Shown here: piece after piece, positions 3,629 to 19,800 of the stretch | Position numbering within the stretch: position 1 is the first letter of the stretch | How the letters are laid out: each line of letters starts with the position of its first letter | From: Dehalococcoidia bacterium | GTDB lineage: Bacteria > Chloroflexota > Dehalococcoidia > Lucifugimonadales > UBA3495 | Length of the DNA stretch: 64,000 nt | Assembly: GCA_965249215.1 (NCBI GenBank) | Contig: CBDFLN010000002.1 | Location: 186,662-250,661 of the forward strand | Direction: 5' to 3' | Translations under genes and position numbers: made by a program | The notes under the pieces: model-generated | What the model was told of the DNA's origin: nothing | Databases searched by the model: none | What the model saw: the letters and a program-made list of their open reading frames with translations, nothing else

Positions 3629-4651
3629 ATGCCATTTGGAGGCAATGACTGGCTGGCCTTGACCCGGGAAGAGACCCTGGAGCCGGACCTTCCCATCTGC
3701 GACCCCCACCACCACTTCTGGGACTTGCGCACTGCGCGCGTCCCGTACCAGAGATACCTGCTGCACGAACTGGCCGACGATATCAACAGCGGCCACAACG
3801 TGCGCTCCACCGTGTTCATCGAGGCTCGCTCCATGTACCGCGACACGGGGCCCGAGGAGTTGCGCTGCGTCGGCGAGGTCGAATTCGTCCAGGGTCTCGC
3901 CGCCGCCAGCGCCAGCGGCCTATACGGACCCGGCCGCGCTGCCGCGGCCATCGTTGGCAAGGCCGACTTGAACATGGGCGATGGAGTCAAGCCCGTGCTG
4001 GAAGCCTTGCAGGCCGCCAGTCCCAACCGCTTCCGCGGCATCCGCCACTCGGTTACCTGGGACCCCCACCCAGAGGTTGAAAACCAGGCCGCAGGAGCCA
4101 CCCAAGGCATGATGGGCGGCGATAATTTCCGCGCCGGGGCCAGGGTCCTGGAGGCTATGGGACTGTCCTTCGAGGCCTGGATGTTTTTCCACCAGCTACC
4201 GGACCTGGCCGCATTCGCCAAATCCGTTCCCGACCTGACCATCATCCTGAACCACGTCGGAGGCTTGCTACGGACAGGCCCCTACGCCGGCCGGGACGAC
4301 GTGATGGAGACGTGGCGCAACGGCGTTGCCGCCGTGGCCCAGTGCCCCAACGTCAGCGTCAAGTTGGGCGGCATTGGAATGCCCCGCACCGGGTTCGACT
4401 GGTCCGCCCGCAGCGAGCCCATAGGCTCGGAAGAATTGGCCCGCGACATGGCCCCTTTGATGGACTACTGCATCGACAAGTTCGGCCCCGATCGCTGCAT
4501 GTTCGAGAGCAACTTCCCCGTGGACAAGGTCTCCTATTCCTACAACGTCATGTACAACGCCTTCAAGCGCCTGTCCAAGGGCTACTCCCCCTCCGAGCGC
4601 AGCGCCATGTTCCACGACAACGCCGTCCGCGCCTACCGCATCGAGGTCTAG
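3629..4651 (+). CDS. amidohydrolase family protein (amidohydrolase_2-type metal-dependent hydrolase)
   Basis: HxH metal motif in ICDPHHHFWD. AAAGGAG lies 9 nt upstream of ATG 3629, so I trimmed the ORF-track start at 3551. Confidence 0.75.
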   Translation: MPFGGNDWLALTREETLEPDLPICDPHHHFWDLRTARVPYQRYLLHELADDINSGHNVRSTVFIEARSMYRDTGPEELRCVGEVEFVQGLAAASASGLYGPGRAAAAIVGKADLNMGDGVKPVLEALQAASPNRFRGIRHSVTWDPHPEVENQAAGATQGMMGGDNFRAGARVLEAMGLSFEAWMFFHQLPDLAAFAKSVPDLTIILNHVGGLLRTGPYAGRDDVMETWRNGVAAVAQCPNVSVKLGGIGMPRTGFDWSARSEPIGSEELARDMAPLMDYCIDKFGPDRCMFESNFPVDKVSYSYNVMYNAFKRLSKGYSPSERSAMFHDNAVRAYRIEV

Positions 4652-4694
4652 GGGCCAGGCAACTAACCTCCACCTAAACCCCCAACCGGGATAC

Positions 4695-4758
4695 GTTTGC
4701 TTTTAGAGTAGGCTATGTCTGAGCCTAGATATGTCAGCCCCCATAACCGAACGGAGCC
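4695..4758. repeat. direct repeat copy 1 flanking the lipoprotein gene
   Basis: GTTTGCTTTTAGAGTAGG...CCCCATAACCGAACGGAGCC recurs at 5987-6045 in the same orientation (about 85 percent identical by eye, with a 5-nt indel). Confidence 0.75.
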
Positions 4759-5909
4759 ACCGTGTAAGCCGGGCCAATACTGTATGCAACGTCGCCGCTG
4801 CCGGGGCGGTCGGAGAACAGGTCGATGGCGCTCACATCACGCTCCCCGAGATCCACTGGAGGCGCTGACGCTTCCGGGGTTGTCGCGGGTAGCAAAGGTT
4901 CAAATGGTTTGTGGTAAATATTTTCCAAAGTGAAGCCGTCGTATGCGGCGCCATCGACGCCATATTGGTAGATGACCTTCAAGCTTGCGGGATGGCCTAA
5001 GATGTGGTCGTACGTTACACGCAGATAGCGGGGCGGGTTAGAACTCAAGGCATGCTCAAGATGCTCAAACAGGTCGTCGATGGTCCTGTAGGAGTAGTCG
5101 GAAACATGTTCTTCAGCTAAAGTCTCCCCGGACTCCCCGTCGATGACCGACTCGATTACCCCGTTCCTGACAGCGATCTTAAGGTCCTTTGAATCTTCCG
5201 GGCATTCACACAGCGGCCTGATTCTCAAATCATAGTTGTCTGAGCCCATGGCGTACCATTCGTCCTTGGCTGAGGAGAGTTCCTCCTTCGCTAAATCAAC
5301 GTCATACAGTGGTTCCTGTGGTTTCGAAGGGTCGACGGGTTCGTAGACAATCGACGTCAGGCTATATCCATCGTCGGGCGTGTTCGTATCACTTACCCCC
5401 CAGGAAGTGGGATAGCCCAAGGTGGGATGATATTTCGCACCCAGTCTGTAGGCCCTGGTGCGCAAGGCGCTGTTGATCTCGGAAAACAGGGCGCCAATGG
5501 TCTTGTTGGCGTAGACGACCTCATCTTCGGTTAACGCCTCTCCGGAATACAAGTCAATAACTAACTCGATGGCGCCGTTCCTGACAACGATCTTGAGGGT
5601 CGTTGAAGATTCCGGGCATAGACACAGCGCCTCGATTTCCAGATTATAGTTGGCTGAGCCTTTGGCGTACCATTTGTCCTTGGCCTCGGCAAGTTTCTCC
5701 TTTTCAAAGTCGACGTCATAAGCGGGCTCACGCGTCGGAGCAGACGTTGGGGTAGGTGTTGGAGCGGACGTTGGGGTAGATGTTGGAGCAGATGTTGGAG
5801 AAGGTTGATTACTGTTCCCCGCGCCGTCGCTGCACGCGACTAAGACCATCAGGAAAGACAGCGCTGTCAGAATAGCAGCCGGTCCAGCGGAACTTTTTGT
5901 AGAACACAT
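4734..5909 (-). CDS. lipoprotein with an internally duplicated ~150-aa domain, function unknown
   Basis: Signal peptide plus lipobox (LMVLVAC), then a PTSA-rich linker. Two homologous halves follow (DVDFEKEKLAEAKDKWYAKGSANY.. and DVDLAKEELSSAKDEWYAMGSDNY..). GC is visibly lower than in the neighbours. Confidence 0.6.
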   Translation of the reverse strand: MCSTKSSAGPAAILTALSFLMVLVACSDGAGNSNQPSPTSAPTSTPTSAPTPTPTSAPTREPAYDVDFEKEKLAEAKDKWYAKGSANYNLEIEALCLCPESSTTLKIVVRNGAIELVIDLYSGEALTEDEVVYANKTIGALFSEINSALRTRAYRLGAKYHPTLGYPTSWGVSDTNTPDDGYSLTSIVYEPVDPSKPQEPLYDVDLAKEELSSAKDEWYAMGSDNYDLRIRPLCECPEDSKDLKIAVRNGVIESVIDGESGETLAEEHVSDYSYRTIDDLFEHLEHALSSNPPRYLRVTYDHILGHPASLKVIYQYGVDGAAYDGFTLENIYHKPFEPLLPATTPEASAPPVDLGERDVSAIDLFSDRPGSGDVAYSIGPAYTVAPFGYGG

Positions 5910-5986
5910 GAATTATCTCCCCATTCACCTGCTTTGGTATAGGGCGTATATGGCCATCACGTCGAACGGACGCGGTGAGCAACGAA

Positions 5987-6045
5987 GTTTGCTTTTGGAG
6001 TACGTCCGAGCTTGGATATGCCAGACCCCATAACCGAACAGAGCC
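5987..6045. repeat. direct repeat copy 2 flanking the lipoprotein gene
   Basis: Matches 4695-4758. Lies between the 5-prime side of the lipoprotein gene and the AKR stop codon. Confidence 0.75.
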
Positions 6046-6067
6046 CTCAGCGGAGCCGGTACTAGCC

Positions 6068-7081
6068 CTACGGGCTAACGTACTGCGGCGGGTAGGGGTT
6101 CACGCTGTGCTTGGCGAAAACCTCGTCTATCCGTCGCATATCCTCGGCCGAGAGGGCCCACTCCAGCGCCCCCAGGTCCTCTTCCAGCTCCTGGTCGTTC
6201 AGGATGCCTACCAGGGCAGTGCCAACCGCAGGGTTTGCCAAGACCCACCTCAGCGCGAGCTGCGGCAGGGTCTTGCCGAGGCTCTCCGCGACGGGTTTCA
6301 GGTCGTCGACCAGGTTCACGTTTCGCTTCCACACCGAATCGTCGAAAATGTCCACCACCACCTCCGGCGCGTCTCCCCTCATGCGCCAGTCCACTTCCTC
6401 GAAGTTCTTCGGCACCGTGCAGGTCCCGGACAGCAGGCCGGAGGCCAATGCCCCCCAGCCCATCACTCCAATGTCCTCTTGCTCGCAATGGGGGATGATC
6501 TCTGTGTCCACCCGCCTGTCGAAAGCGTTGTAGTGGTACTGCGCCGCATCCACCCGCCGGATAGCGTTGCATTCCTTGACTTGGGCAAGGCTGTGATTCG
6601 AGAGGCCCACGTACCTCGCCTTCCCCTGCTGCACCAGGCTGTCCAGGGTCTCCATGGTCTCCTCGAAAGGCGTGTGGGGGTCCGGATAATGCACCAGCAG
6701 CACGTCTATGTAGTCGGTCTGCATCCGCTCCAGGCTCTGTTCCACCAGGGGCAGTATGTAGTCCCTTCGGCTGTCCCGGCCCGGCCGCGGCCGGTCGAGC
6801 TCCGATCCCTGCCAGCCCAGGCCGCACTTAGTCACCAGCGCCACGTCCTTGCGGCGCGTGCCGAGGGCCCTTCCCAGCATCTTTTCCGAGTCCCCCAGTC
6901 CGTAGTGGGGCGCGGTATCGAAGCAGTTGATGCCCATGTCGATGGCCCGGTTTACCGTGGCGCACATCTGGTCGATATAGTCGTCCCCCCACAGTCCTTT
7001 GGTCGGCTTTGACGCGTCATGACAGCCGTAGCCTATGGCTGACACCGTGATGTCCGTTGCTCCGAATTTGCGGTATTCCAT
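6068..7081 (-). CDS. aldo/keto reductase (paralogue 1)
   Basis: Starts at MEYRKFG (ATG 7081), as in the two paralogues. AKR-typical CFDTAP.YG and DVLLVHYPD motifs. The upstream ORF extension to 7246 is discarded. Confidence 0.85.
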   Translation of the reverse strand: MEYRKFGATDITVSAIGYGCHDASKPTKGLWGDDYIDQMCATVNRAIDMGINCFDTAPHYGLGDSEKMLGRALGTRRKDVALVTKCGLGWQGSELDRPRPGRDSRRDYILPLVEQSLERMQTDYIDVLLVHYPDPHTPFEETMETLDSLVQQGKARYVGLSNHSLAQVKECNAIRRVDAAQYHYNAFDRRVDTEIIPHCEQEDIGVMGWGALASGLLSGTCTVPKNFEEVDWRMRGDAPEVVVDIFDDSVWKRNVNLVDDLKPVAESLGKTLPQLALRWVLANPAVGTALVGILNDQELEEDLGALEWALSAEDMRRIDEVFAKHSVNPYPPQYVSP

Positions 7082-7330
7082 CGCTCTGCTGCCTCCAACG
7101 AGTTGGGTTCCTGCGCAATCATGGGACCTGACCGGTTGTCCCCGGCTCCGGTCGTCCAATAGTACATCAATCACCGCCGCCCAATCCACCAACTGCTCAT
7201 TCCGCCGCCAACCAACCCTGGAGCAACGGTCCTCTCGGCGCGGCACCCACCCTGTCTCGTTGACAACGACAGACTCAAATTGATATAAGCTTCTACAGGC
7301 GTACAGCCAAGACGAGGGGGAATCAACAAC

Positions 7331-7696
7331 ATGAGCAGTTCCAATGATGGCCCAGTAGGCGTCCTGCGCATGGTAGGCATCGACGTGGGGGACTTGGACC
7401 GGGCCAAGGAGTTCTGGTCCGCTATCCTAGGGCTAGAGGAAGAGAGCCGGGGCCCCGAATACCTGTTGTTCGTCAGGCGTCCGGGCGAGCCCATCATCTA
7501 CTTGCAAAAGGTGCCGGAGAAAAAGATCATCAAGAACCGGATGCACTTCGACATCGCCGTCAAAGACCTGGATGTAGGCGTCGACCGGGCGCTTGCCCTG
7601 GGCGCGACGAGGTCCCGGACTATCCCCGGAGGCGGACCCCACGTTGCAGTCCTGGAAGACCCCGACGGCAACGAGTTCTGCCTGGTCATGCACTAG
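7331..7696 (+). CDS. VOC (glyoxalase/bleomycin-resistance/dioxygenase) family protein
   Basis: 121 aa, with GIDVGDLDRAKEFW .. MHFDIAV .. LEDPDGNEFCLV, typical of a single VOC module. Confidence 0.75.
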   Translation: MSSSNDGPVGVLRMVGIDVGDLDRAKEFWSAILGLEEESRGPEYLLFVRRPGEPIIYLQKVPEKKIIKNRMHFDIAVKDLDVGVDRALALGATRSRTIPGGGPHVAVLEDPDGNEFCLVMH

Positions 7697-7784
7697 TTAG
7701 CCGGCAGCAGTGACCAAAACTGCGTAGGGGGCGGGGATAAATGTGCCCCCTGGCAGGCTAACTGCCTTAGGCTAACGTCGAATT

Positions 7785-8157
7785 CCCCGTTCACCGTGAG
7801 CCTGTCCAAATCACCCGTTCACACTGAGCTTGTCGAAGTGCGCCGCCGCCCGTTCGTTTGGTTCGAGAGCCTCACCACGAACGGGCTACCAGCCTGGGCG
7901 CACCACGAACGGGCTGCCAATCTTCACCCGTTGACACTGAGCTTGTCGAAGTGCGCCGCCGCCCGTTCGTCTGGTTCGAGAGCCTCACCATGAACGGGCT
8001 ACCAGCCTGGGCGCACCACGAACGGGCTACCATCCTGGGCGCACTACGAACGGGCTGCCAGTCTGGGCGCACTACGAACGGGCTGCCAGTCTGGGCGCAC
8101 CACGAACGGGCTGCCAATCTTCACCCGTTCACCCTGAGCTAGTCGAAGGGCCCGCCG
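7785..8157. repeat. REP/MITE-like composite repeat array (family A)
   Basis: Repeated modules CCCGTTCAC(N)TGAGCNTGTCGAAG, GGTTCGAGAGCCTCACCA and 28-bp units CGAACGGGCTRCCANNCTGGGCGCACYA (x ~4.5). Hairpin arms GAACGGG/CCCGTTC. ORF-track peptides here are translations of the repeat. Confidence 0.8.
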
Positions 8158-9168
8158 CTACGGGTCTACCATCACGGGCGGGTGCGTATCGACGCCGTAC
8201 TTGGCGAACACCTCGTCTATCTCGCGCATCTCCTCGCCCGATATAGCCCACCCCAGCACCCCCAGGTTCTCTTCCAATTCCCGGCTGTTTATCGTCCCCA
8301 CCAGGGCCGCGCTCACCGCCGGGTTGGACAGCACCCACCTCAAGGATAGCTGGGCGATGGTCTTGCCCCGCCTCTCTGCGATGGGTTTAAGCTCGTCCAC
8401 CAGGCGTATGTTACTTTGGAAGATGTCATGGGCATACTGCCCCTTCATAATCTCGCCGGCGGCGTCTCCCTTTGCCCGCCAGTCCGAATCGCTGAACGTA
8501 GTGTCCGCGGTGAATGCGCCCGCCAGCAAGCCCGACGCCATCGAGCCCCACACCATCACCCCCAAGCCCTGCTCCCGGCACCAGGGGAATATCTCCGGCT
8601 CCATCCGACGGTCGAACATGTTCAACTGGTATTGAGCGATCTCCAGCGGCCGGATCTCGTGGCACTTCTTGATCTGGGCCTCCGCGAAGTTGGACACCCC
8701 CAAATATCTAACCTTCCCCTGCTGCACCAAGGTGTCCATGGCGTCCATGGTCTCCTCGAAAGGCGTGCCCGTATCCGGGAAGTGGCACAACAGCACGTCT
8801 ATGTAGTCAGTTTGCAGCCTTTGCAGGCTTGATTCCACCAGGGGCAGTATGTTCTCCCTCCGGGCATCCCTGCCCTTGGGCCTGCCCTCCGCCGATCCCT
8901 CGAACCCGAACCCGCACTTGGTCACGACCACCACGTCCTTCCGCTGCGGGCCCAGGGCCTTGCCCAACATTAACTCCGATGCGCCGCCGCCGTACACCGG
9001 CGCCGTGTCGAAACACGTGATTCCCAGGTCCAGGGCCCGGCGAACCGCCGCGCCCATTTCGTCGCCGTAGCCTCCGCCGCCTGCTACTTGCGGTACGCTG
9101 GCATCCCAGCAACCACAGCCCAGCACCGATACCGTTAGGTCCGTTGGTCCGAATTGTCGGTATTCCAT
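8158..9168 (-). CDS. aldo/keto reductase (paralogue 2)
   Basis: Starts at MEYRQFG (ATG 9168). Collinear with 6068-7081 and 10233-11219. Confidence 0.85.
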   Translation of the reverse strand: MEYRQFGPTDLTVSVLGCGCWDASVPQVAGGGGYGDEMGAAVRRALDLGITCFDTAPVYGGGASELMLGKALGPQRKDVVVVTKCGFGFEGSAEGRPKGRDARRENILPLVESSLQRLQTDYIDVLLCHFPDTGTPFEETMDAMDTLVQQGKVRYLGVSNFAEAQIKKCHEIRPLEIAQYQLNMFDRRMEPEIFPWCREQGLGVMVWGSMASGLLAGAFTADTTFSDSDWRAKGDAAGEIMKGQYAHDIFQSNIRLVDELKPIAERRGKTIAQLSLRWVLSNPAVSAALVGTINSRELEENLGVLGWAISGEEMREIDEVFAKYGVDTHPPVMVDP

Positions 9169-9276
9169 TTCTCTGCCACCTCCATAAGGCTGGATACTAC
9201 GAATACCCGGGCTTGATGCCGGCACGCCTCCTGTCACTCCCGGCGCACCCCCTGGCCACCGCTGGCGCACCGCCTG

Positions 9277-9657
9277 TCATCTACAATCCCAGCGCACCCA
9301 CCATGTCATTCCTGTAAGTGTCGGGTAATTCGTTGACATATCCAAACAGCGGAGCATAAGCCCCCGGAGTTCATAGCGGGCGAGGTCGGCGGCCTCCTGG
9401 CGGAGGCGGGCCAGTTCATGGCGGAAGCGGTTGTCTTGGAGCCAACGGTAGGGTGTGCCTTGTCCTATGCCCAAGGAGCGTGCGGCTTGAGCCAGGGTGG
9501 GAGCAGCGGCGATGATGGGCAGAGCTTGCTGCCGACGGGAGGAAAGGCCGGAATTTTCGAATTCTGTACCATTCTGTACCATTCCGTTCCATTTTGGGGC
9601 GTCGGCAGCAGGCGAGGGAGGGTTGGAGGATTCGGGGCTGGGGCGGCGTTTGGTCAC
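9277..9657 (-). CDS. helix-turn-helix protein, probably a truncated phage/mobile-element remnant
   Basis: LSSRRQQALPIIAAAPTLAQAARSLGIGQGTPYRWLQDNRFRHELARLRQEA resembles small phage HTH proteins. The C-terminal 25 aa look like read-through junk. Confidence 0.3.
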   Translation of the reverse strand: MTKRRPSPESSNPPSPAADAPKWNGMVQNGTEFENSGLSSRRQQALPIIAAAPTLAQAARSLGIGQGTPYRWLQDNRFRHELARLRQEAADLARYELRGLMLRCLDMSTNYPTLTGMTWWVRWDCR

Positions 9658-10030
9658 GACACGTCACGGGCCTCAGTGGCTGGTCTTGATTGGGTCCGGC
9701 GATATGGCAGGGACCTGACCTGCATCCATGATAAGGGGAGCCTGGGAGGCTGGGCAAGGGGCAAGTGTCAGTGGTGGGGGCGCTGGGGGCGAGATTATGA
9801 CCCCCTCTAAATCTCCCCCTTCGTAAGGGGGAGAGGTCAAGTTTGGTACAAACCGGGGAGACTGGTAACAGATTATCCATGAACATAGGTAACAATTTCC
9901 TTCAAGGAGGAAAGGAAATGGCGGCTGGGAGGAGGGAATAACGGTTTGTCAACGAATTAGCTAACACATACAATTCCGAGCGCAGCGCAGCGGAGAGAGG
10001 AATCTGCAATCCCGCGGCGGCTGGCGGTCC

Positions 10031-10167: not shown

Positions 10168-10181
10168 GGGGGGGGGGGGGG
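10168..10181. repeat. G14 homopolymer
   Basis: 14 consecutive G counted directly, intergenic, about 50 nt 3-prime of the AKR3 stop. Confidence 0.9.
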
Positions 10182-10232
10182 CCGTCGCCCCAGAATGACA
10201 GGTTGGGGACAGGCAGGCAGCCCGGAAGCAGC

Positions 10233-11219
10233 CTATGGGTCCAGGCCAATGCCAGGGTGAGTCTCCACGCCGTACTTGGCGAATACCGCGTCAACCTCCC
10301 GCAGGTCCTCGGCGGAAAGCGCCCAACCCAGCGTACCCATGTTCTCCTCGAACTCTTTGGTGCGCAGGGTGCCGACCAGGGCGGTGCTTACTGCCGGGTT
10401 GGACAACACCCACCGGAGCGCAAGCTGGGGCATCGTCTTGCCCAGTTTGGCCGCAATGGATTTCAGCTCATCCACCACCTGGATGTTACGTGCCCTGTGC
10501 TCCAGGGCCAGCATACCCCCGTCGAATCCGGCGCTGCCTCCTATCCCTCGATAGTCGCCTTCTTGGAACTTCATGTCCACAGTGAAAGTACCCGTCAGCA
10601 GGCCGAAACCCATTGACCCGTAGGTCATAACCCCTATGCCGGTTTCCATGCAATAGGGATACATCGCCTTCTCGACGCGCCTGTCGAACATGTTATAGTC
10701 GTGCTGCACCACGCTAACCGGGCGAGTCTTCTCGCACTCCCGCACCTGCTCCTCGGTGAAATTTGAAACGCCTGTGTAACGCACCTTCCCCTGCTGCACC
10801 GCGGTCTCCAGCGCCCCCATGGTCTCCTCGAAAGGCACGCTCACGTCCGGCGCATGCACCAGCAGCACGTCCAGGTAGTCCGTTTGCATCCTTTGCAGGC
10901 TCTGGTCCACCTGCTGTAGGATAGACTCCCTGCGGCCGTCCCGGTTCTTCAGCCTGCCGACCTGCGAACCCTGGAAGCCCAGGCCGCACTTGGTCACCAC
11001 CACCACGTCTTTCCGCCGGGCGCCCAATGCCCTGCCCAGCATTCGCTCCGACTCCCCGTCGCCGTACTGGGCCGCAGTATCGAAGCAGGTTATGCCATGG
11101 TCCAAGGCTCGCTTTACGGCGGTCTCCATTTCATCGCCGTAAGCCTTCTCGTAGTCCCATACGCCGCACCCAAACACCGACACGGTCAGGTCCGTAGGGC
11201 CGAATCTGCGGTATTCCAT
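10233..11219 (-). CDS. aldo/keto reductase (paralogue 3)
   Basis: Starts at MEYRRFG (ATG 11219). Collinear with the other two AKR genes. Confidence 0.85.
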   Translation of the reverse strand: MEYRRFGPTDLTVSVFGCGVWDYEKAYGDEMETAVKRALDHGITCFDTAAQYGDGESERMLGRALGARRKDVVVVTKCGLGFQGSQVGRLKNRDGRRESILQQVDQSLQRMQTDYLDVLLVHAPDVSVPFEETMGALETAVQQGKVRYTGVSNFTEEQVRECEKTRPVSVVQHDYNMFDRRVEKAMYPYCMETGIGVMTYGSMGFGLLTGTFTVDMKFQEGDYRGIGGSAGFDGGMLALEHRARNIQVVDELKSIAAKLGKTMPQLALRWVLSNPAVSTALVGTLRTKEFEENMGTLGWALSAEDLREVDAVFAKYGVETHPGIGLDP

Positions 11220-11552
11220 TGGTCTGCCTCCTCCAGTCAGCCTGGCTATTGGAAAACTCAGGGGCTGGGCGTCCGGTTCTCCGCCCGCCCGATTTTCAGC
11301 ATTGTACACCAATAACTGGCAGGGTAAGGAGACATTGCGGTGACGCCGGTAGCATTTCCGGCCGGGGTCTAACTCCCGCTCTGGTGTTGCTTCGCGACCT
11401 CACTATGCCTCCGGGTGGCCAAGAGGACCCGCTACTTGGCAATGGCCGGATGTTGGGCGGCAAGTGGAGGGCAACGGCAGACCTGGTGGTATAATCCGGC
11501 CCGAACCGCGTTGGGAGAACGAGTATCAACCAGGGAGAGTTGAGACGAAGCA

Positions 11553-13097
11553 ATGGTAGAGCGGTTCTTGTGTAGCCTGGCGCCGCTGGCGGCGTTATTG
11601 CTGGCGCTGGCGATAGCCTGCGGTGTGCCCGACGCACTGGGAACGACACCTCCGGAAGCCACCGTGACGCCCACGAACATGAACGAGCCTCAACCCACAG
11701 AGGCCATGACACCCGAACTCACGGAGGTAGTGACGCCCGTATCCACGGAGGTGACGGAGCCGGAACCGACAGACGTGACGGAGCCGGAACCGACAGACGT
11801 GACGGAGCCGGACCCCACGGACGAGGCGGAAACGGAGAGCTATTACGGCGGCGCTCTCAGGGTGGCGTATCCTATTGACCACTCAACTCTGGACCCAGTC
11901 CAAGCCGAGGCCGTAATCATAACCGACGCGGTCGGTCAAATTTTCGAGCCCTTGGTCCGCATCGCTCCCGACGCCTCGTACGTTCCCATTCTGGCCACGG
12001 CCTGGGAAATCAGCGACGACCTTATGTCCTACACCTTCACCCTGCGGGAAGGGGTGAAGTTCCACAACGGGGCCGACTTCACGGCAGACGACGTGGTCTT
12101 TAGCCTTAACCGGGCTCGGGATCCTGACATCTCCTCGCAGGCTGCCCTATTTGGCAGTGTTGATGATATCGTCGCCGTCGACGACTATGCCGTTCGTATT
12201 GACCACGATGTCCCCAACGGCCTCTTCCTGGACGTCCTGCAGCTATTGCCATCGGCCATCCTGGACGCCGATACGGATCTCGACAAGTTGGCAGTGGGTG
12301 AGGAGGCCTACGGCACAGGCCCATTCATGCTCGAAGAGTTGCTGCCGGAAGAACGGGTCACCATGGTCCGCAACCCCGACTATTGGGACCGCGGATTGCC
12401 TTACCTGGATGAGTTGGTCTTCGTGGGTATCGCGGAACGTTCAGCCCGGCGTGAGGCGCTCTTGGACGGCGATGTGGACGTATTGCCCGGTGTCGAACCA
12501 AAGGAAGTCGACGCCATCTCTGCCGGTCCCTACACCCAGGTGCATAGCGTTGTGTCATCAAGCTGGATCGGGATAGCCATAAATAACCTGATACGGCCTT
12601 TTGACGACAAACTTGTGCGGCAGGCGTTGCGATACGCCGTCGACCGGGATCTGGTCAACCAAATGGCGTTCTTGGGCCTGGGCGCCCCCAACAACGACAG
12701 CCCGGTTTGGCCCGGGGACTCCCGCTTCTACGCTCCAGAATATGAGGTTGAGTACGATCCGGAAAAGGCACGGCAGCTCTTGGCGGAGGCCGGCTACTCG
12801 GATGGCATCGATATCACCATAGCCACGGCTGACCTGGATCCAGGAATGATCGAGTTGCCCGCGGCATTCAAACAGAGCGCGGCGGCGGCGGGCATCCGGG
12901 TCGACATCAAAAGTCACTCGTCGGCCCAATTCTGGAGTCAGATATATCCCTACGGGCCTTTGACTGTCTTCTGGAATTTGGTCCGGCCCCACCCGGACCA
13001 CTCCCTGACGATAATCTTCCACAGCGGCTCACGGTGGAACACGACCTACTTCGGCAAACAACTGGTTGAGGGCGCCGAATTCGCTCCGTTCGATAGG
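11553..13097 (+). pseudogene. ABC transporter substrate-binding protein (family 5), N-terminal part, interrupted by an IS element
   Basis: Lipoprotein signal (LALAIAC), then a 24-bp x 2.7 tandem repeat encoding TEPEPTDV (11751-11816). SBP_bac_5-like body. The reading frame runs into the IS inverted repeat at 13098 and then into nonsense. Confidence 0.8.
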
Positions 13098-13227
13098 GAA
13101 ATTTTGGGAATTATATACCTGTTTACACAATTGAAGTTGGGCAGTTTAGCCACTTGCTCAGGTGAGGGGAGTCACTCTCCGGTGACAATGCCCGCCAGGG
13201 TGAGTTTTAGGACTTCCCAGGTCGCTC

Positions 13228-13401
13228 CTACTCCGTATCCTCGGCCTTGTCCCGCTCCGCTTCCACTTCCTTGCTCTGATAGTCCCACGTCTCTTTAGGC
13301 GGCCCCTGCATACAGGCAAGGGCTATTTCCTCCGGCGATGCGTCTACCGGGTCCCACAACGTCCCAATCCTCTTGTCGGCTAGTGGTTCTCTCTTGGCCA
13401 T
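13228..13401 (-). CDS. hypothetical 57-aa protein (below the ORF-track cutoff)
   Basis: My own translation is MAKREPLADKRIGTLWDPVDASPEEIALACMQGPPKETWDYQSKEVEAERDKAEDTE. AAAGGA lies upstream, 35 nt after the passenger stop, inside the IS ends. Confidence 0.25.
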   Translation of the reverse strand: MAKREPLADKRIGTLWDPVDASPEEIALACMQGPPKETWDYQSKEVEAERDKAEDTE

Positions 13402-13436
13402 ATCACAGTCCTTTTACTGTCGGCTATGGTGAAGGT

Positions 13437-15710
13437 CTAGATGCGCCTGAAAAGCTCCGCAACCCTGGGAAAGCGGGGCGCCGGCAGGTTCCAGGCGGGG
13501 TCTGTCCTTCGGATTGAGTCCACAACAGCGTCCCGATCCAAGACAAGCACATTCCCACTTCCATAAGTGGCCGTCCGGTTCACCCAGTGGTCCTGCACCT
13601 CTCGCATTCGCAGAATGTCGCGCACATTGTCGACGCCTATCAGAATGTCAGTGTCAGTGGCTGTCCAATACCCTTGCGTGGGAACTGCCTTCCTGGTGTA
13701 CCGTTCTCGAACTAACCGGCTGGCCATCTGTTGATGCTTCAACTCCCAGGCCCAGCCGTTGAAATCGCTGGCCGTAACCGGCTTCGCCCAGGCCGCTATC
13801 ACTTCATCACCTATAAGGTTTTCGACCAACAATGTCCGTATAAGGCTTGTGGACTCCAATAGATAGTCAAAGCTGGCAGGGTCCTTGACGGAGGCTATGG
13901 TCTCCGTCATCCGGTCTAAATACTCTAAGTAGAAGTCTTGCCCAAGGCGATTGATGAAGGGCAGGGTTTCCTTGTCTAGGCGTCTGCGGGTGTCCTCGTC
14001 GTCTGACGGCAACCCTTTTGGCGTGTAGACCAGAAACGCTCTATTCCTGACTTCGTTGGCGAACTCGGTCGCGTCGGGGTTCAGCGTAACTATCGTGCAT
14101 GGATAATGCCCCCCATTACTCACCATCACGTCATACAGCTTTATGATGAGCTCGCCTTGCTTCTGGTTTCTACCAGAAAAGCGTTCCGCGGCCACGTCCT
14201 GATAGAACAGGGGCAGTACTCCAACATGGCGGGCTGCATCCTTGAAGTCCGTTTGGGTGAAATCGCTGTTATCTAGGACAGTGGGCGGCCCGAACATAGA
14301 TGTCAAGAGGAACCTTACCAGTGCACTTTTCCCGCAATGCGACTGGCCGTAAACAATGGCCACGTGCTTGATCTCTTTGGAAGCATTGCCACCGGCAAGA
14401 TAGATGTCTCGGGCCAAGGCGGGCATGAACGGCGTGAAGTATAGCCAGCCCATCAGCCCGAAGTAGTTGCGCTGTAGAAGGTCGGCCCCCTTCCCAAACT
14501 CATGAAACTTGTCGATAAATTGGTTGATAAGCAATGCGTCGCTGGCAATGCCTTCATTGGAGCCGGCGACCTCCACCGAACGGCCATCATAGATGAAGTG
14601 GTCACTAATGCGACTCAGGCTATGCCACCTGGCAGGTGTCGCCGGCCTCTTGGAGGCCAGCGCATAGTTGATGGGCCGAAGCGCCGCTTCGTCAAGAATC
14701 GCCTTGCCTTCGGGTAAAACGTGAATGTTCTCACGCAACCCCTCGGACATGGCGGTTTCCAAGTCAGCAGCCCGCACAGCGATATACTCAGGGTCGCCCG
14801 GCATATCGGTTCCCGAGAAGAAGAGGGTGAAGTGTTCGCCCTTCCGCTTCGCTTCCCGTCCGGCCGGCAGGTCCTCCGCCTTGACCAGGTGGGCCGGTTT
14901 CGTTTCCGGCCTGAGTTGGAGCCCAGTTGCCAGGGACAAGGCTGCCTCATATTTCCGCATTAGGCAGCCCCACATCCAGTCGTCATTGTCGAACGCTAAC
15001 AGGACTTCACCCTGGCGTCCCGACATAGCCCTATCGGACAGGTTGGCGCTTCCTACAAGGACGCGGCGCAGCCCCGGCTTCTCCAGGAAGTACAGCTTGG
15101 AATGAACGATGCCGCCGCCCGTGACGTAGAACCTGGCCCGCCCAGTTGCTTGCCACGCCATCAAATGCGCCGTCTGTTCGTCTGTGGCCCCGCCGATCCC
15201 CAGATAGCCTCGCGCAAGCTCGTCCTCGATGGCTTGCTGAAAGAGCACTACCTTCTCGGCGCTGGTTTCTCGCACCAGGCCTTCGGACCCGAATAGGATT
15301 TCCGCCTCCCTGTACTCTTGCATGGTCAGGAGCTTGAGAATCGAGGGAAGGGACACAGTGTAGGTCAGCGCCCGAAACGTCTCGAAGCCGGCCAGTATGT
15401 CTGTCGTGAACTTTGTGACGTCGTGCTCGTAGGGCCAAATAACCTCCAGGCTCAGGGCTGCATCCCGTGCGTCCTCCAAGGTGTCAAACGCACTCAGCTG
15501 CGGCTGCGCAATCCTATCTTCAAACATCGTGCCGCGGCTTGCCGCTATAAGGTCTACGTGCCTGATGCGGTATGATGGTCTCCCGGCCCGCGGCACGCGG
15601 ACAGCCTGCAGCCTCCCGGACTTTATCCAACCAGAAACTATTTGCTGCTTAGTCCCAATGACCTCAGCGGCTTCTGATGCACTCTCGTAAACTTCCTTGA
15701 CATTCGCCAT
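13437..15710 (-). CDS. HTH + PLD-like (HKD) nuclease domain + P-loop NTPase fusion protein (IS passenger)
   Basis: Residues ~10-57 are excisionase/MerR-type HTH-like (EAAEVIGTKQQIVSGWIKSGRLQAVRV). Single HKD motif H203-S-K..VGSANLS. Walker A GQSHCGKS (455-462), a possible Walker B LPLFYQD and an SF3-helicase-like continuation. GGAGG RBS. Confidence 0.7.
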   Translation of the reverse strand: MANVKEVYESASEAAEVIGTKQQIVSGWIKSGRLQAVRVPRAGRPSYRIRHVDLIAASRGTMFEDRIAQPQLSAFDTLEDARDAALSLEVIWPYEHDVTKFTTDILAGFETFRALTYTVSLPSILKLLTMQEYREAEILFGSEGLVRETSAEKVVLFQQAIEDELARGYLGIGGATDEQTAHLMAWQATGRARFYVTGGGIVHSKLYFLEKPGLRRVLVGSANLSDRAMSGRQGEVLLAFDNDDWMWGCLMRKYEAALSLATGLQLRPETKPAHLVKAEDLPAGREAKRKGEHFTLFFSGTDMPGDPEYIAVRAADLETAMSEGLRENIHVLPEGKAILDEAALRPINYALASKRPATPARWHSLSRISDHFIYDGRSVEVAGSNEGIASDALLINQFIDKFHEFGKGADLLQRNYFGLMGWLYFTPFMPALARDIYLAGGNASKEIKHVAIVYGQSHCGKSALVRFLLTSMFGPPTVLDNSDFTQTDFKDAARHVGVLPLFYQDVAAERFSGRNQKQGELIIKLYDVMVSNGGHYPCTIVTLNPDATEFANEVRNRAFLVYTPKGLPSDDEDTRRRLDKETLPFINRLGQDFYLEYLDRMTETIASVKDPASFDYLLESTSLIRTLLVENLIGDEVIAAWAKPVTASDFNGWAWELKHQQMASRLVRERYTRKAVPTQGYWTATDTDILIGVDNVRDILRMREVQDHWVNRTATYGSGNVLVLDRDAVVDSIRRTDPAWNLPAPRFPRVAELFRRI

Positions 15711-15719
15711 TGCTACCTC

Positions 15720-15778
15720 CAGTCAATACAGTCATTACAGCCATTGTACCATCAAGGCGAGAAAGACTGTATTGACTG
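15720..15778 (-). promoter_or_regulatory. putative promoter of the passenger gene flanked by a 14-bp inverted-repeat operator
   Basis: CAGTCAATACAGTC (15720-15733) and GACTGTATTGACTG (15765-15778) are perfect reverse complements. Between them on the minus strand sits TGGTACAAT, an extended -10 (15743-15751). Confidence 0.45.
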
Positions 15779-15798
15779 TATTGGGACGGTCGCCCAGG

Positions 15799-16776
15799 CT
15801 AAAGCATCCGTGGTTGTCGGGTGATTTCCGGCCCTATCAGGCCAGCGTATGAAAGCCGCTTGCCAGCTGTTCCCCTGGCCATGCGGCCCATGATGGCCTC
15901 CGTGTCCAACGGGCGGCTGTTGTGACGGCCTGAGAACTCGGTTACGTAGCGCCCCAGGTGCTTGGCCGAGATATGGTGGTAGGTCCCGTTGATTCCCCGC
16001 TTGAGCAAGGCCCAAAAGGACTCTATCCCGTTGGTGGTCGCCTCATGCTTGACGTACTCCCCGGCGCTGTGCTGGACCGTCCAGTGGGAGCGGTGGGGCA
16101 TCCCTTCGTATGCCTTGGCTTCGTCGGTGTAGACCACGGCCCCAATCTCGGTAGTTTGCCGGACAAAACCCTGGAGGGCCTCTTTGTCGGTGAAGGCGAT
16201 GGGCCTAGCGGTGATTTGCCCGGTCTCCTGGTCGCGAGCTCCCACAACCGCGGCCTTGCCTACCGGCCCGCGGCCAGCGTTCAGTTTCTTGTCCTGGTGC
16301 TTGTTCCCTTCCTTCCCGCCGATGTAGGTCTCGTCGATCTCCACGGGGCCGGAGAATTGGTCGGGATTCTCTTTGAGGGTTTCCCGGATGCGGTGGGCCA
16401 AGTGCCAAGCCGTCTTTTGGGTAACGGCCAGGTCCCGGTGTAGCTTCATGCTCGATACGCCCTTCAGATGTGTAGAAAACAGGTAGAAGGCGATGGCCCA
16501 GGTTCCCAGGGGGAGCTTCGAACCTTGCATCAATGTGCCGGTCTTTATGGAGAAGTCCTTGCGGCAATCCTTGCACCGGAACGGCTGGGGCTTGCGGTTC
16601 TTGCGCTCTCTCACGCCATCCAGTCCGCCGCAGAAGGGGCAGCATATCCCGGAGGGCCAGCGGGTTTCCATGAACCACGCCTCAGCGTCGGCCTCGTTGG
16701 AGAATCGCTGGATGGCTTGGACTAGGGAGATACCCTTGCGAAAGGACTTGCCGGGGGCTGATTTAGTCATGGTCAC
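15799..16776 (-). CDS. IS1595-family (ISXO2-like) DDE transposase
   Basis: N-terminal zinc ribbon CPFCGG..CKDCRKDF, plus VEIDETYIGGK, VYTDEAKAY and NGIESFWALLKR motifs. 325 aa. Confidence 0.85.
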   Translation of the reverse strand: MTMTKSAPGKSFRKGISLVQAIQRFSNEADAEAWFMETRWPSGICCPFCGGLDGVRERKNRKPQPFRCKDCRKDFSIKTGTLMQGSKLPLGTWAIAFYLFSTHLKGVSSMKLHRDLAVTQKTAWHLAHRIRETLKENPDQFSGPVEIDETYIGGKEGNKHQDKKLNAGRGPVGKAAVVGARDQETGQITARPIAFTDKEALQGFVRQTTEIGAVVYTDEAKAYEGMPHRSHWTVQHSAGEYVKHEATTNGIESFWALLKRGINGTYHHISAKHLGRYVTEFSGRHNSRPLDTEAIMGRMARGTAGKRLSYAGLIGPEITRQPRML

Positions 16777-16797
16777 TATCCTTTGGTTGATAGTACC

Positions 16798-16826
16798 AGT
16801 TTACACATTTGGGCCTTCAAAGTCAA
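16798..16826 (-). promoter_or_regulatory. putative transposase promoter
   Basis: The minus strand reads TTGACT-N17-TAAACT just inside the right IR, about 20 nt upstream of an AAAGGA RBS. Confidence 0.35.
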
Positions 16827-16875
16827 GGGTTTTTGCCCCAATTGTGTAATTAGGTATATAATTCCCGAAATTTTC

Positions 16876-17112
16876 ACCGTAGGCCCGTTGGCCCAAGAGT
16901 TGGACGCGCTCATCGAACGGGCCAGGGGGGAGAGCCTGGAACAGCAAAAGGTGACCTATCGGGAGATACAGGCCTTCTTGGCGGAACAGGTGCCGCAGCT
17001 TGTCATAGCCTCTCGTCCCAAGATAGCCGGAGCAGGGAATCATGTGCAGGGCTTGGCGCTAAGCCCGCTAAGTCCGAATTATTACTACGAAACGGTCTGG
17101 CTGGAGCAGTAG
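16876..17112 (+). pseudogene. ABC transporter substrate-binding protein, C-terminal part
   Basis: ..ELDALIERARGESLEQQKVTYREIQAFLAEQVPQLVI..NHVQGLALSPL..YYYETVWLEQ is a typical family-5 SBP C-terminus. It begins right after the IS inverted repeat. Confidence 0.75.
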
Positions 17113-17141
17113 GGCCAGCCGGTTCCGCTGCCGTGTCCAGT

Positions 17142-18122
17142 TCATACCACTAGCACAATCTTCCCGAAGTTGGCGTTGGTCTCCATGTATTCGTGGGCCT
17201 TTCCCGCCTCCGCCAGGGGGAAAGTGCGGTCCACCACCGCCCGAATCCTGCCGTCGGCGATCAACGGCAGCACGTGTCTCATGAACTGGTGGGTCAGCCC
17301 TATCTTCTCCTCCAGGGGACGGGGCCTCAGCACCGTGCCGTGCACCCGGAGCCGCTTGGGCATTAACAGTCCCAGGCTGGTTTCCACCTTGTCTCCGCCC
17401 ATCAACCCCACCAACACGATCCTCCCCTGGGTCGACATGGCGGCGATGTTCCGCTCCCAGTACGGACCGCCCACCAGGTCGCAGACCACGTTGACGCCCT
17501 TCCTGCCCGTCGCCTCCTTCACCACTTGGACAAAGTCCTGCTCCCGGTAGTTGATGCCCTTGTCCAGACCCAACTCCGCCGCCCTGGCAAGCTTCTCCGC
17601 CGATCCCGCCGTCCCGAACACGTAGGCCCCGGCCTGGTGCGCCAGTTGCAGGGCGGCAGTGCCCACGCCGCTGCCCACGGCGTGCACCAGCGCCGACTCC
17701 CCCATCTGCAATTCGCAATGGTTGAACAGGGCATCGTATGCGGTGAAGAATACCTCCGGTATGGCCGCGGCCTGGACGAAGTCCAACTCCGGCGGCATGG
17801 GCATGGCCATCAGGTGGTGCGTCGTTACCCGGCTCGCGTACCCTGCTCCCGCCAGCAGCCCGAACACCCTGTCCCCCGGAGCCATTGCCGTCACCCGTTC
17901 GCCCGCTTCCAGCACCACCCCGGAAAACTCCAGACCGGGCACGTCGGCCCGCACCCCCGGCGGCGGGGCGTAGCCTCCAAGGCGCTGCAGCAGATCGGCC
18001 CGGTTCAGGGCCGATGCCTTTACATCGACAAGGACTTCATCCGGAGAGGGAACCGGGTCGTCGACTTCCCTTACCTGCAGTACCTCCGGGCCTCCCGGCC
18101 CCGTAATCAGCGCCGCTCGCAT
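17142..18122 (-). CDS. NAD(P)H:quinone oxidoreductase (MDR superfamily, PIG3/Qor-like)
   Basis: MRAALITGPGGPEVLQVREV.., ASALNRADL and AVGSGVGTAA nucleotide-binding motifs. AAGGAGG lies upstream of ATG 18122. The ORF-track extension to 18317 is discarded. Confidence 0.8.
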   Translation of the reverse strand: MRAALITGPGGPEVLQVREVDDPVPSPDEVLVDVKASALNRADLLQRLGGYAPPPGVRADVPGLEFSGVVLEAGERVTAMAPGDRVFGLLAGAGYASRVTTHHLMAMPMPPELDFVQAAAIPEVFFTAYDALFNHCELQMGESALVHAVGSGVGTAALQLAHQAGAYVFGTAGSAEKLARAAELGLDKGINYREQDFVQVVKEATGRKGVNVVCDLVGGPYWERNIAAMSTQGRIVLVGLMGGDKVETSLGLLMPKRLRVHGTVLRPRPLEEKIGLTHQFMRHVLPLIADGRIRAVVDRTFPLAEAGKAHEYMETNANFGKIVLVV

Positions 18123-18150
18123 AGGCGGACCTCCTTTCTTGCCAACACCC

Positions 18151-19563
18151 TTAAGGCCGGATAGAATCCGCCTCTTCCGCAGTGATGCCGTCGGTAAACC
18201 AGGACTGGACGACCGTCTGCCGCGCAAGCTCGATATCTTGGTGCGCCAGCTGTGGCAACGATTCAAGGGCTTTCGCCTCTTCCGCAGTGATGCCGTCGGT
18301 AAACCATGATAGCGCAATTACATGCCGGGCAAGCTCAACATCTATCGACGCAAGGTCTCCCGAGTAGTTAATCGCCAACCGTTCATCTTGGATGATGCCG
18401 TCGGCAAACCACGGAAGAGCTGCTGTCTTTGGCCCAAGCTCGGTATCTGCGGCCACGAGGTTTTCCAATCCACGAATAGCCTCCCCTTCCCCATAGGTCA
18501 TGTCGTCGGTAAACCACGGCAGGGCCGCTATCGTTCGTCCAAGCTGAATATCTGCAGTCGCGAGGACTCCTAATCTACGGATAGCCTCCCCTTCCCCATA
18601 GGTGATGCCGTCCGCAAACCACGACATACCAATCGTCTCGTGAGCAAGGTCAACGTCCTTTGACGCCAAATCGGCCAATCGATCGATGGCCCTGGACCCA
18701 TTCTCGGTGATGCCGTTAGTCGCCCACGAGAAATCTACTATGCGCCGCGCCAATTCAACGTCCGCCAGCGCAAGTTTGCCTAAGGCGCCAAAAGGAGGGA
18801 TCTCCGAAACTCCATCTTCCAACCAGAGACGCGTTACGGTCTTGGCAAGTTCGATGTCCGCTGATATTAGACCATGCTCATGCAAATCGGAGATAGCGAT
18901 TGAGGCTTTCGATAAGTGAAATAAACCGCCTATGAACCAAGAAAAGCCGGCGATCATTCTTGCCAGGTCCGCGTCCTTAGTGGCGAGGTTGTCCACTTCA
19001 ATAAGGACCTTGGCTTCCCAGTAGGTCAGTTCATCGGCGAGCCAGGAGACGCTCACCACGTCTTGGGCCAGCCCGCGGTCCGCTAATGCGAGCCCGTACA
19101 GGCTCTCGAGCACGAGCCGTTTGCCGTCAACCGTTACTGAAACGTAGCCAGCTTGGCTCTGGCCTAAGAGCCAAGGCTTTTTGACGATGGCGCTGCAAAG
19201 CTCGGCGTCAAACAGCCAAAGTTTCGTAAGCAAGTCGACGAAGTCGGCGTAGGCTTCGGGTGGGGCTTCCATAGTCCCCGCGTTGCATTCGGTGATGGGT
19301 TCCTGCACCGTTGCCGTGACGGTCGGCACAGGAATAGAAATGCTCACTGACCCAGGCGTAGCTGTAGGGGCTTCAGTGGCCTCCGAAGTTGGCTCGTTGA
19401 CGGTTTCCTGGACGACTGCCGTTGGGGGCGGCGTATCAATAACGGCGACAGTTGGCTCAGGGGTAGAAACGCTCCCTGGCCCCGGCGTAACGGTAGCCAC
19501 CAGGCCACAGCCAACCGCCGTCAAAAGCACCGTCACAGATGTTAGTACTACAAGTAGTCTCAT
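18151..19563 (-). CDS. repeat-containing lipoprotein, function unknown
   Basis: Signal peptide plus lipobox (LLTAVGC). About 10 tandem ~37-aa repeats centred on SWF(T/A)DGIT..E. The last two repeats are near-identical at DNA level (111-bp period, 18170 vs 18268). Lower GC. Confidence 0.6.
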   Translation of the reverse strand: MRLLVVLTSVTVLLTAVGCGLVATVTPGPGSVSTPEPTVAVIDTPPPTAVVQETVNEPTSEATEAPTATPGSVSISIPVPTVTATVQEPITECNAGTMEAPPEAYADFVDLLTKLWLFDAELCSAIVKKPWLLGQSQAGYVSVTVDGKRLVLESLYGLALADRGLAQDVVSVSWLADELTYWEAKVLIEVDNLATKDADLARMIAGFSWFIGGLFHLSKASIAISDLHEHGLISADIELAKTVTRLWLEDGVSEIPPFGALGKLALADVELARRIVDFSWATNGITENGSRAIDRLADLASKDVDLAHETIGMSWFADGITYGEGEAIRRLGVLATADIQLGRTIAALPWFTDDMTYGEGEAIRGLENLVAADTELGPKTAALPWFADGIIQDERLAINYSGDLASIDVELARHVIALSWFTDGITAEEAKALESLPQLAHQDIELARQTVVQSWFTDGITAEEADSIRP

Positions 19564-19800
19564 GATGCACGGAGGAGGAGGCCCGGCAATTATCGGGCAG
19601 AACACTTGCCGTGGCAAATCCGCTGTTTCGTGCCCACAATAGCGAAACGCGGCAAGCAAGCACTGACCATGTATAATGTCTTCCGGGAGCGTTCTCGAAC
19701 GTCGCTGAACCTCTGGTTAGACAACAACCCGCCAAGGAGGAGGACGCTGGTCTGTCCCAAATGGCGGATGACCCTTAACAGAATGGACATGCAGTGACCC

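Follow-up and report, generated by a model that had tools for sequence, protein, structure and literature searches.

An IS1595-family insertion sequence with a predicted PLD-SF3 passenger gene in a substrate-binding protein gene of a Dehalococcoidia bacterium

Among insertion sequences (ISs), only the IS1595 and IS66 families are described as including elements with passenger genes, termed tIS (TnCentral preprint, bioRxiv 10.1101/2021.05.26.445724). The category is established, as had been assumed in a first-pass annotation of the DNA discussed here, a stretch of 64,000 nucleotides from a Dehalococcoidia bacterium (assembly GCA_965249215.1, contig CBDFLN010000002.1, positions 186,662 to 250,661 of the forward strand). 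This whole stretch is called the window below. It contains an IS1595-family element of 3761 bp (13106-16866, corrected boundaries) within a gene for a substrate-binding protein (SBP). The element encodes a transposase, a passenger protein of 757 amino acids (aa) and a protein of 57 aa, all three on the minus strand as annotated at first pass. Like known IS1595 tIS, it has a single DDE transposase (zinc ribbon plus ISXO2-like domain), short terminal inverted repeats (IRs), an 8-bp target-site duplication (TSD), and a passenger within the IRs. Unlike them, it has an uncharacterised passenger that joins a predicted phospholipase D (PLD) nuclease domain to a superfamily 3 (SF3)-like ATPase, a second conserved small open reading frame (ORF), and a defined slot with varying content. 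We regard it as highly probable that the locus as a whole is best explained by an intact IS1595 tIS that recently transposed into the SBP gene and whose passenger is a predicted restriction-like nuclease. Since tIS are an already recognised category, the element itself is unsurprising. It provides a clean example of a filled site, an empty site, and a TSD for a 3.8-kb IS1595 unit with a 2.3-kb passenger that is currently mobile in an uncultured Chloroflexota lineage.

PLD nucleases occur in several described restriction and defence enzymes with which the passenger can be compared. SauUSI is an experimentally shown single-gene PLD defence enzyme (PMC7913695, PMC3141236). Like the passenger, it is a single polypeptide with an N-terminal single-HKD PLD domain, an NTPase motor, and a C-terminal domain, and it needs no cognate methylase. 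However, the motor of SauUSI belongs to superfamily 2 and that of the passenger is D5/SF3-like; SauUSI also has a C-terminal reader of 5-methylcytosine and 5-hydroxymethylcytosine and no N-terminal helix-turn-helix (HTH). The likeness is one of architecture, not of family membership. Other comparisons are the NgoAVII/CglI-type ATP-dependent restriction enzymes and BfiI. Among solved structures, the PLD nuclease domain of the NgoAVII R-protein (4rct; Foldseek E = 8e-6) comes closest; in NgoAVII, nuclease and ATPase activities cooperate (PMC4267654). In contrast to the passenger, NgoAVII has a separate ATPase subunit, a B3-like DNA-binding domain, and a co-encoded methyltransferase, none of which is present in the window element. 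END nucleases are single-gene PLD defence nucleases missed by DefenseFinder and PADLOC; in their modular architecture, the PLD domain is N-terminal, and the C-terminal part, a sensor or a helicase, varies (PMC12191111). END(PaCF1) differs from the passenger by an inactive EndoIII-like sensor and the absence of an ATPase, and the likeness is at the level of the PLD superfamily.

The motor half of the passenger is comparable to D5-like SF3 primase-helicases and HUH-SF3 Rep proteins, with which its ATPase core appears to share the Walker A and B motifs, an Asn placed like that of motif C, and an Arg. In these proteins, however, the N-terminal module is a primase or HUH nuclease, whereas in the passenger it is a PLD nuclease, and full-length TM-scores are low (0.13-0.3). 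The literature searched contained no description of a PLD domain with an SF3 helicase in defence, of a family that combines a winged HTH (wHTH) with PLD and SF3 domains, of a conserved small terminal ORF or a slot repeatedly holding restriction-type genes, or of an IS1595 element with restriction-modification (R-M) cargo.

Insertion into the SBP gene and boundaries of the element

The interrupted gene can be compared with an intact counterpart. Once the IS and one copy of the TSD are removed, the SBP frame runs across the junction (...FDR-EIF-TVGPLAQ...) and yields a protein of 596 aa. A search with this reconstruction retrieves another protein of 596 aa (P0037) at 99% identity and 100% coverage. 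P0037 is encoded on a contig from a different ENA sample (L083, the sister strain) that has the same neighbours, namely aldo-keto reductases upstream and a zinc-type alcohol dehydrogenase downstream. By blastn, L083 6628-9553 corresponds to window 10176-13105 (99.1% identity) and L083 9546-10815 to window 16867-18136 (97.0%). These two alignments have exactly the 8 bp GAAATTTT in common, of which L083 contains a single copy. The empty site therefore lacks exactly the IR-to-IR segment (13106-16866) and one TSD copy. An intact SBP gene with a single GAAATTTT in the sister strain means that the insertion is recent, and the pair of filled and empty sites makes it strain-variable. The first-pass annotation had already judged the insertion recent from the intact frame on either side, and the 596-aa reconstruction together with the sister strain bears this out. 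The insertion lies near the 3' end of the gene and removes the last 79 residues of the protein. Its description as an ABC-transporter substrate-binding gene stands with regard to the family-5 SBP domain (SBP_bac_5); the gene is an orphan, however, with no permease or ATPase genes beside it.

The terminal IRs are 28 bp long and match at 26 of 28 positions. An inverted-repeat search of the window returns arms of 35 nucleotides (13099-13133 and 16839-16873) that are 91% complementary. The core GGGAATTATATACCT has exactly two occurrences in the window, inverted relative to each other, where chance alone predicts 0.04, so that the relatedness of the two ends is far beyond chance. The IS tips read GGGAATT... 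from 13106 and ...AATTCCC up to 16866, and each end begins GGGAATTATATACC (the right end as reverse complement). Directly outside both tips lies the perfect direct repeat GAAATTTT, which is the TSD. The first reading had recognised a real IR, though with a length of 36-37 bp, and had seen no clean 8-bp TSD. Both errors have one source: the TSD was counted into the IR because its AAATTT core is palindromic, and a duplication was consequently sought too far outward. The G+C content of the element is 57.2% compared with 62.5% for the window, and no other 3761-bp stretch in the 64 kb is as low, in agreement with the lower G+C noted earlier. The drop is due to the passenger (57.1%) and not to the transposase, which alone has 60.8%. 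No second copy of the element is present within the window.

All the IS1595 features that were tested are present in the element: an ISXO2-like DDE domain, a zinc ribbon, short terminal IRs, and an 8-bp TSD. A TSD of 8 bp is the usual length in the IS1595 family. The transposase matches DDE_Tnp_IS1595 (PF12762; 3.3e-37, 128 bits vs a cut-off of 27), Zn_ribbon_IS1595 (PF12760; residues 27-73, 2.5e-8, 34.2 bits vs 25.4), and the NCBIfam model transpos_IS1595 (NF033547; 6.7e-54, 183 bits vs 75), which agrees with its earlier assignment to the ISXO2/IS1595 type. Its ORF extends over 15799-16776 on the minus strand, and the database gene call for an identical protein (P0278) starts at the ATG at 16770. 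The best match among PLSDB plasmid IS1595 transposases has 48% identity, and none reaches 50%. For this reason the element is probably an unnamed IS under the usual criteria of ISfinder. Transposase relatives scored at E <= 1e-40 number 7960.

The transposase gene is preceded by a promoter-like site (Table 1). A third, internal inverted copy of the inner IR segment (TACCAGTTTACACATTTG) lies at 16794-16811, over the -10 of this site, and is conserved in the related elements L084 and L086. Its position suggests a putative autoregulatory site, at which a DDE transposase that binds the IRs may also bind over its own -10 and so limit its own expression. In the transposase-proximal IR, there is also an outward promoter-like site (TTGCCC-18-TATAAT, 16833-16862, plus strand) directed toward the SBP fragment that follows; it is only a match to the consensus.

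Table 1. Coordinates in the window of the element, its genes and sites, and the interrupted SBP gene
Feature	Position	Strand	Basis
SBP gene, 5' part (codons 1-517, left TSD copy included)	11553..13105	+	SBP_bac_5 E = 2.4e-85; 99.1% nucleotide identity to L083
Left TSD copy, GAAATTTT	13098..13105		single copy in empty site L083:9546-9553
Transposase-distal terminal IR, GGGAATTATATACCTGTTTACACAATTG	13106..13133		repeat search, core count, junction comparison
Conserved 57-aa backbone ORF (KRIGTLWDPVDASPEEIA.ACMQGPPKETWDY)	13228..13401	-	90% nucleotide identity to terminal ORF of L084
Passenger gene, 757 aa	13437..15710	-	Pfam, alignment, Foldseek
Repeat-rich region, CAATACAGT direct and inverted repeats around TGGTACAAT extended -10-like box (putative cargo promoter/operator)	15720..15783	-	two inverted repeats detected, sequence reading
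IS1595-family DDE transposase, 323 aa (N-terminal zinc ribbon, ISXO2-like DDE domain)	15799..16770	-	Pfam, NCBIfam
Transposase promoter-like site, TTGACT-17-TAAACT (16826..16798)	16794..16826	-	consensus; arrangement conserved in L084 and L086
Transposase-proximal terminal IR, reverse complement GGGAATTATATACCTAATTACACAATTG	16839..16866		repeat search, core count, junction comparison
Right TSD copy, GAAATTTT	16867..16874		junction comparison, empty site
SBP gene, 3' part (last 78 codons and stop)	16875..17112	+	frame resumes from 13105; 97% nucleotide identity to L083

The mobile unit and its variable slot

Homologues of the passenger (36 proteins) were collected, and 82 loci were fetched. The passenger lies inside the IS ends in three diverged elements, that of the window, L001, and L003, which occupy unrelated sites and have perfect 8-bp TSDs. 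L001 (4917-8568, 3652 bp) has a transposase 60% and a passenger 63% identical to those of the window and the TSD AATTATAT; L003 (4860-8948, 4089 bp) has a transposase 60% and a passenger 55% identical and the TSD ATTTAATT. In both, the order is transposase, homologous passenger, small ORF, and the IRs start with GGGAATTATATA. This tip is common to the window element, L001, L003, and L084-L088, and that of the L094-L100 elements is GGGGATTATATA. Transposase, passenger, and small ORF thus move together as a unit bounded by 28-bp IRs, and the window element is a tIS by definition, with a passenger that lies within the IRs and transposes with the IS. The first-pass proposal, an IS1595-family element with a passenger that has split an SBP gene, is favoured by all three of the checks that it had named: the orthologous gene in the sister strain lacks the segment, the two ends are related, and the IS ends of L001 and L003 include the passenger rather than exclude it. 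Two features are peculiar to L003. Its passenger homologue is broken up into two ORFs (5995-6537 and 6537-8291), owing either to a frameshift that makes it a pseudogene or to an error in the assembly, and it has an extra ORF of 113 aa (8307-8648) with no family match.

The backbone of these elements has the arrangement IR, promoter, transposase, variable slot, conserved small ORF, IR. The elements with the closest transposases (70-92% identity) carry other cargo between transposase and small ORF. In L084/L085 (transposase 92% identical, 1614 bp), which are two 100% identical copies in one genome, the slot holds an ORF of 109 aa. L086/L087 (84%; L086:5903-9015, 3113 bp) carry a ThaI-family restriction endonuclease and an N6_N4 methyltransferase (N6_N4_Mtase), and their TSD is imperfect. 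The L094-L100 elements (70%; L094:4904-7414, 2511 bp) carry an N6_N4 methylase and a methylase-HNH protein and occupy seven places, six of them with perfect 8-bp TSDs; the copies lie on three contigs from two ENA samples, with six of the seven on two contigs of one sample. L088 (72%; 5960-10013, 4054 bp, perfect TSD TTTCGTTG) holds about seven small ORFs without assigned function, and no occurrence of the conserved small-ORF motif was detected. The insertion sites are mostly AT-rich 8-mers (GAAATTTT, AATTATAT, ATTTAATT, CTTAATTT, AATGATTT, AAAACTTT) in a genome of about 62% G+C, with GCCGGAAT, among others, as an exception. The transposase would be expected to cut with an 8-bp stagger at AT-rich targets.

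The 57-codon ORF described at first pass is present as stated. It is, however, part of the IS backbone rather than cargo, with homologues in L084-L087 and L094-L100 that share the motif KR[IM]G[TS]LW[DE]PV[DE]A[ST]PE[ED]IA.ACMQGPPK..WD[YF]. In L001 and L003 the small ORF encodes a zinc-ribbon variant with a C-terminal CxxC...CxxC. The 57-aa protein has no Pfam match, and PADLOC, PHROGs, and NCBIfam scans gave nothing useful for it.

DNA comparison delimits the slot further. The window element matches L084 over nucleotides 1-1070 (IR, promoter, transposase; 85.6% identity), over the small ORF (90%), and at the far IR, and its 2.4 kb between transposase and small ORF replace 370 bp of L084. Transposase identity does not track cargo: L084 (92%) and L086 (84%) carry different cargo, whereas L001 and L003 (60%) carry homologous cargo. 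The content of the slot, which extends from the transposase stop codon to the beginning of the small ORF, has therefore been swapped, or else acquired and lost more than once. No conserved recombination signal was seen at the slot borders. The 109-aa ORF of L084 and the 113-aa ORF of L003 were considered as a shared backbone gene and are unrelated in comparison.

Short direct and inverted repeats lie directly upstream of the passenger in all three passenger-carrying elements (CAATACAGT in the window, GCACATT in L001, CAGATGGTT in L003). From the repeats and the -10-like box we infer a putative promoter/operator of the cargo in the window element (Table 1).

The passengers of the window, L001, and L003 are the only IS-borne ones. 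Five other members of the HTH-containing clade (L002/L005, L004, L089, L090, L091) have no transposase, IS tips, or small ORF nearby, so that the passenger is a free-standing gene that was picked up by the IS lineage. The transposase-less loci (L002, L004, L089-L091) were also considered as non-autonomous derivatives of the IS; they contain neither IS tips nor the small-ORF motif.

Restriction-type cargo that varies within one slot suggests that very small ISs, beyond Tn7-like and other large elements, spread defence genes within and between genomes. Tentatively, the Chloroflexota IS1595 lineage may be a modular shuttle whose slot holds mostly nucleic-acid-targeting modules, with the passenger family as a new single-gene ATP-dependent defence nuclease spread by it. 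The lineage is apparently of sponge-associated origin.

Domains and likely function of the passenger

The passenger has a winged HTH (residues ~1-60), a predicted PLD nuclease domain with a single HKD motif (~78-260), a linker, a D5/SF3-like P-loop ATPase (~385-565), and a C-terminal domain of unassigned fold (~566-757). It belongs to the Pfam family PF27394 (Aq_aa27), by a precomputed match that is on record for P0001, which is identical to it, and for each of the 36 homologues. This family is without described function. Its name presumably refers to the plasmid-borne Aquifex gene aa27, and literature searches for Aq_aa27 gave only spurious matches. A profile search of 1.84 billion representatives (50% identity clusters) returns 303 clusters at E <= 1e-30 and 774 at E <= 1e-10. 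The majority have a length of 650-690 aa and begin only after the HTH.

In an alignment of 25 homologues, H203-x-K205 ... G220-S-A-N223 is invariant and represents a single HKD/PLD motif. The acidic position of this motif, HxK(x)4D(x)6GSxN, is E210 instead of D in the window protein (203-HSKLYFLE-210). One HKD motif per chain would imply dimerisation. The ATPase has the Walker A sequence GQSHCGKS, in which Y454, G455, and K461 are invariant and G460 is conserved in at least 90% of the homologues; D505 of Walker B is likewise conserved in at least 90%, not in all. N544 and R557 are invariant and, in our reading, are placed like SF3 motif C and an arginine finger.

The AlphaFold model of the passenger has a predicted local distance difference test (pLDDT) score of 78.6. 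When its PLD part is compared with the PDB by Foldseek, SauUSI (7clg, 1e-4) is found in addition to NgoAVII. The ATPase part, which has no Pfam match, resembles MPXV E5 (4e-4), NrS-1, and the SaPI5 primase-helicase, and the AAA+ proteins RFC and Cdc48 score similarly. Among viral models, the matches are D5-like, DUF927, and COG3378 primase-helicases (2e-6). The N-terminal HTH resembles those of RacA, mycobacteriophage Xis, and BldC and has weak matches to HTH_17 and the excisionase family TIGR01764 (residues 11-56). PDB searches by sequence, with the single protein or a profile, gave weak HTH matches only, and PHROGs and NCBIfam scans gave nothing useful beyond weak PLD and HTH matches.

The likeliest function of the passenger is that of a predicted self-contained, ATP-dependent, restriction-like nuclease, a reading on which our confidence is evenly divided. 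It is favoured because the nuclease domain is closest to restriction PLD domains, because defence by a single gene is proven for PLD nucleases that carry a motor or a sensor, because the slot of sister ISs holds R-M modules, and because relatives of the passenger lie in defence or toxin-antitoxin (TA) neighbourhoods. With regard to the last point, 30 of 75 loci of distant homologues (26-30% identity) have defence-like neighbours confirmed by Pfam: HsdM, N6_N4 methylase, Fic, Zeta toxin, SLFN/AlbA_2, SIR2-TPR, AAA_14/DUF4143, and ImmA-HTH. A Hymenobacter copy is adjoined by an AAA_15 ATPase. The 75 loci come mostly from metagenome-assembled genomes of Latescibacterota, Dehalococcoidia, Acidimicrobiia, and Spongiisociaceae, and several isolate labels (RHO, APA, Spongiisocius) look sponge-associated, by label alone. 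Homologues on Acetobacteraceae plasmids are annotated as 'restriction endonuclease PLD domain-containing protein' or 'phospholipase D family protein' and sit among TA modules; the Komagataeibacter plasmid has its own RepA. Since no partner gene is conserved, the passenger probably works alone.

A restriction-like nuclease of this kind might work as follows. The PLD domains of two chains would pair to form one HKD active site, and the D5/SF3-like ATPase would drive translocation or remodelling of DNA. The N-terminal wHTH, the C-terminal domain, or both may bind DNA, and this binding could also repress the repeat-flanked promoter. The protein would then target incoming DNA or, as an addiction module, promote the retention of the IS.

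Several observations weigh against a restriction-like function. The Pfam matches to PLD families are below the cut-offs, both for the N-terminal PLD domain of RE_NgoFVII (3.5e-5, 23.6 bits vs a gathering threshold of 23.8) and for PLDc_2 (17.2 bits vs 27). The C-terminal 192 aa (566-757; window 13437-14012), which model well alone (pLDDT 86), match no solved structure (best Foldseek E = 0.14) and no modification reader; Type IV-like discrimination of self from non-self is thus unsupported. The element contains no methyltransferase partner among its three ORFs. In PADLOC-DB v2 the passenger matches no system model beyond a 20-bit match of the HKD motif to ZacB (6e-5), and it has no tblastn match in phages. 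In many members of the family the gene stands alone amid housekeeping genes, such as guaA and purD in L029, and the 30 defence-like loci collapse to about five orthologous contexts, which makes the independent support modest. Furthermore, replication initiators likewise have the architecture of a nuclease joined to an SF3 helicase.

This last architecture is the basis of an alternative that we consider unlikely, namely that the passenger is a Rep-like protein of replication or mobility and not a defence enzyme. Its wHTH would recognise iteron-like repeats, nicking would fall to the PLD domain instead of an HUH nuclease or primase, and unwinding to the SF3 helicase; as a result, an excised or circular form of the element would replicate, or the passenger would be a captured replicon module. 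The fusion itself and the resemblance of its ATPase half to D5-type and SaPI5 primase-helicases fit such a role, with Cch of SCCmec matched only weakly (E = 0.26). So do the excisionase/AlpA type of the HTH (HTH_17, TIGR01764), which often adjoins such helicases in integrative elements, the short repeats that precede the passenger gene in each of the three elements, and, by inference from the name only, the plasmid-borne Aquifex namesake. However, sister ISs with transposases 70-92% identical multiply without the passenger, as the two identical copies L084/L085 and the seven of L094-L100 attest, and the homologues among TA modules on Acetobacteraceae plasmids are not the replication proteins of these plasmids, for which a separate RepA is seen on that of Komagataeibacter. 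Most family members are without the HTH, some are single genes among housekeeping genes (L029), and the PLD domain is closest to restriction endonucleases.

It is rather improbable that the passenger is mainly a module of addiction or stabilisation, toxic when lost or deregulated, that favours persistence of the IS over protection of the host. A selfish role of this kind has also been suggested for mobile R-M systems. R-M pairs in the same slot of sister elements, plasmid homologues among TA modules, and a repeat-flanked promoter of its own together with an HTH, which fit tight autoregulation, are consistent with it; in contrast, the element contains no antitoxin or methylase partner, and a single-gene nuclease offers no obvious post-segregational mechanism. 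The addiction and defence readings overlap, and computation cannot separate the two.

That the locus is not one mobile unit at all, with IS ends by chance around a resident gene or a passenger inserted into an older immobile IS, is of negligible likelihood, since the empty site of the sister strain, which lacks exactly the IR-to-IR segment and one TSD copy, excludes a chance composite, and the perfect 8-bp TSDs at unrelated sites of three passenger-carrying elements and the intact ORFs of the window element outweigh the frameshifted passenger of L003 and the lack of perfect TSDs in L085 and L086.

With a few hundred clusters, the passenger family unites a PLD nuclease of restriction type and a D5/SF3-like motor in one protein. 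PADLOC-DB v2 contains no such combination, which makes these proteins reasonable candidates for a new enzyme of defence or restriction encoded by a single gene.

Other features of the window

The window has some further features. At 3164-3495 there is a 35-bp tandem repeat of 9.5 copies (93% matches, consensus GCCGCCTGGCCCAGGAAGCGGCTTAGCCCCGCCCA), which is also present in L083. It lies directly upstream of an ORF (3551-4651) whose L083 counterpart is annotated as Amidohydro_2. Close by, the strains differ by an indel or replacement, with 1421 bp in the window (4645-6066) and 761 bp in L083 (2675-3436); the window segment holds a lipoprotein-like ORF of 391 aa (4734-5909, minus strand) that is apparently internally duplicated. 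Downstream of the interrupted SBP gene, an ORF of 502 aa (18151-19659, minus strand) consists of repeated '...SWF.DGIT...' units. The stretch from 18706, which includes most of this ORF, has 84.5% identity to the sister strain compared with 97-99% in the flanks, and the ORF may encode a fast-evolving repeat protein.

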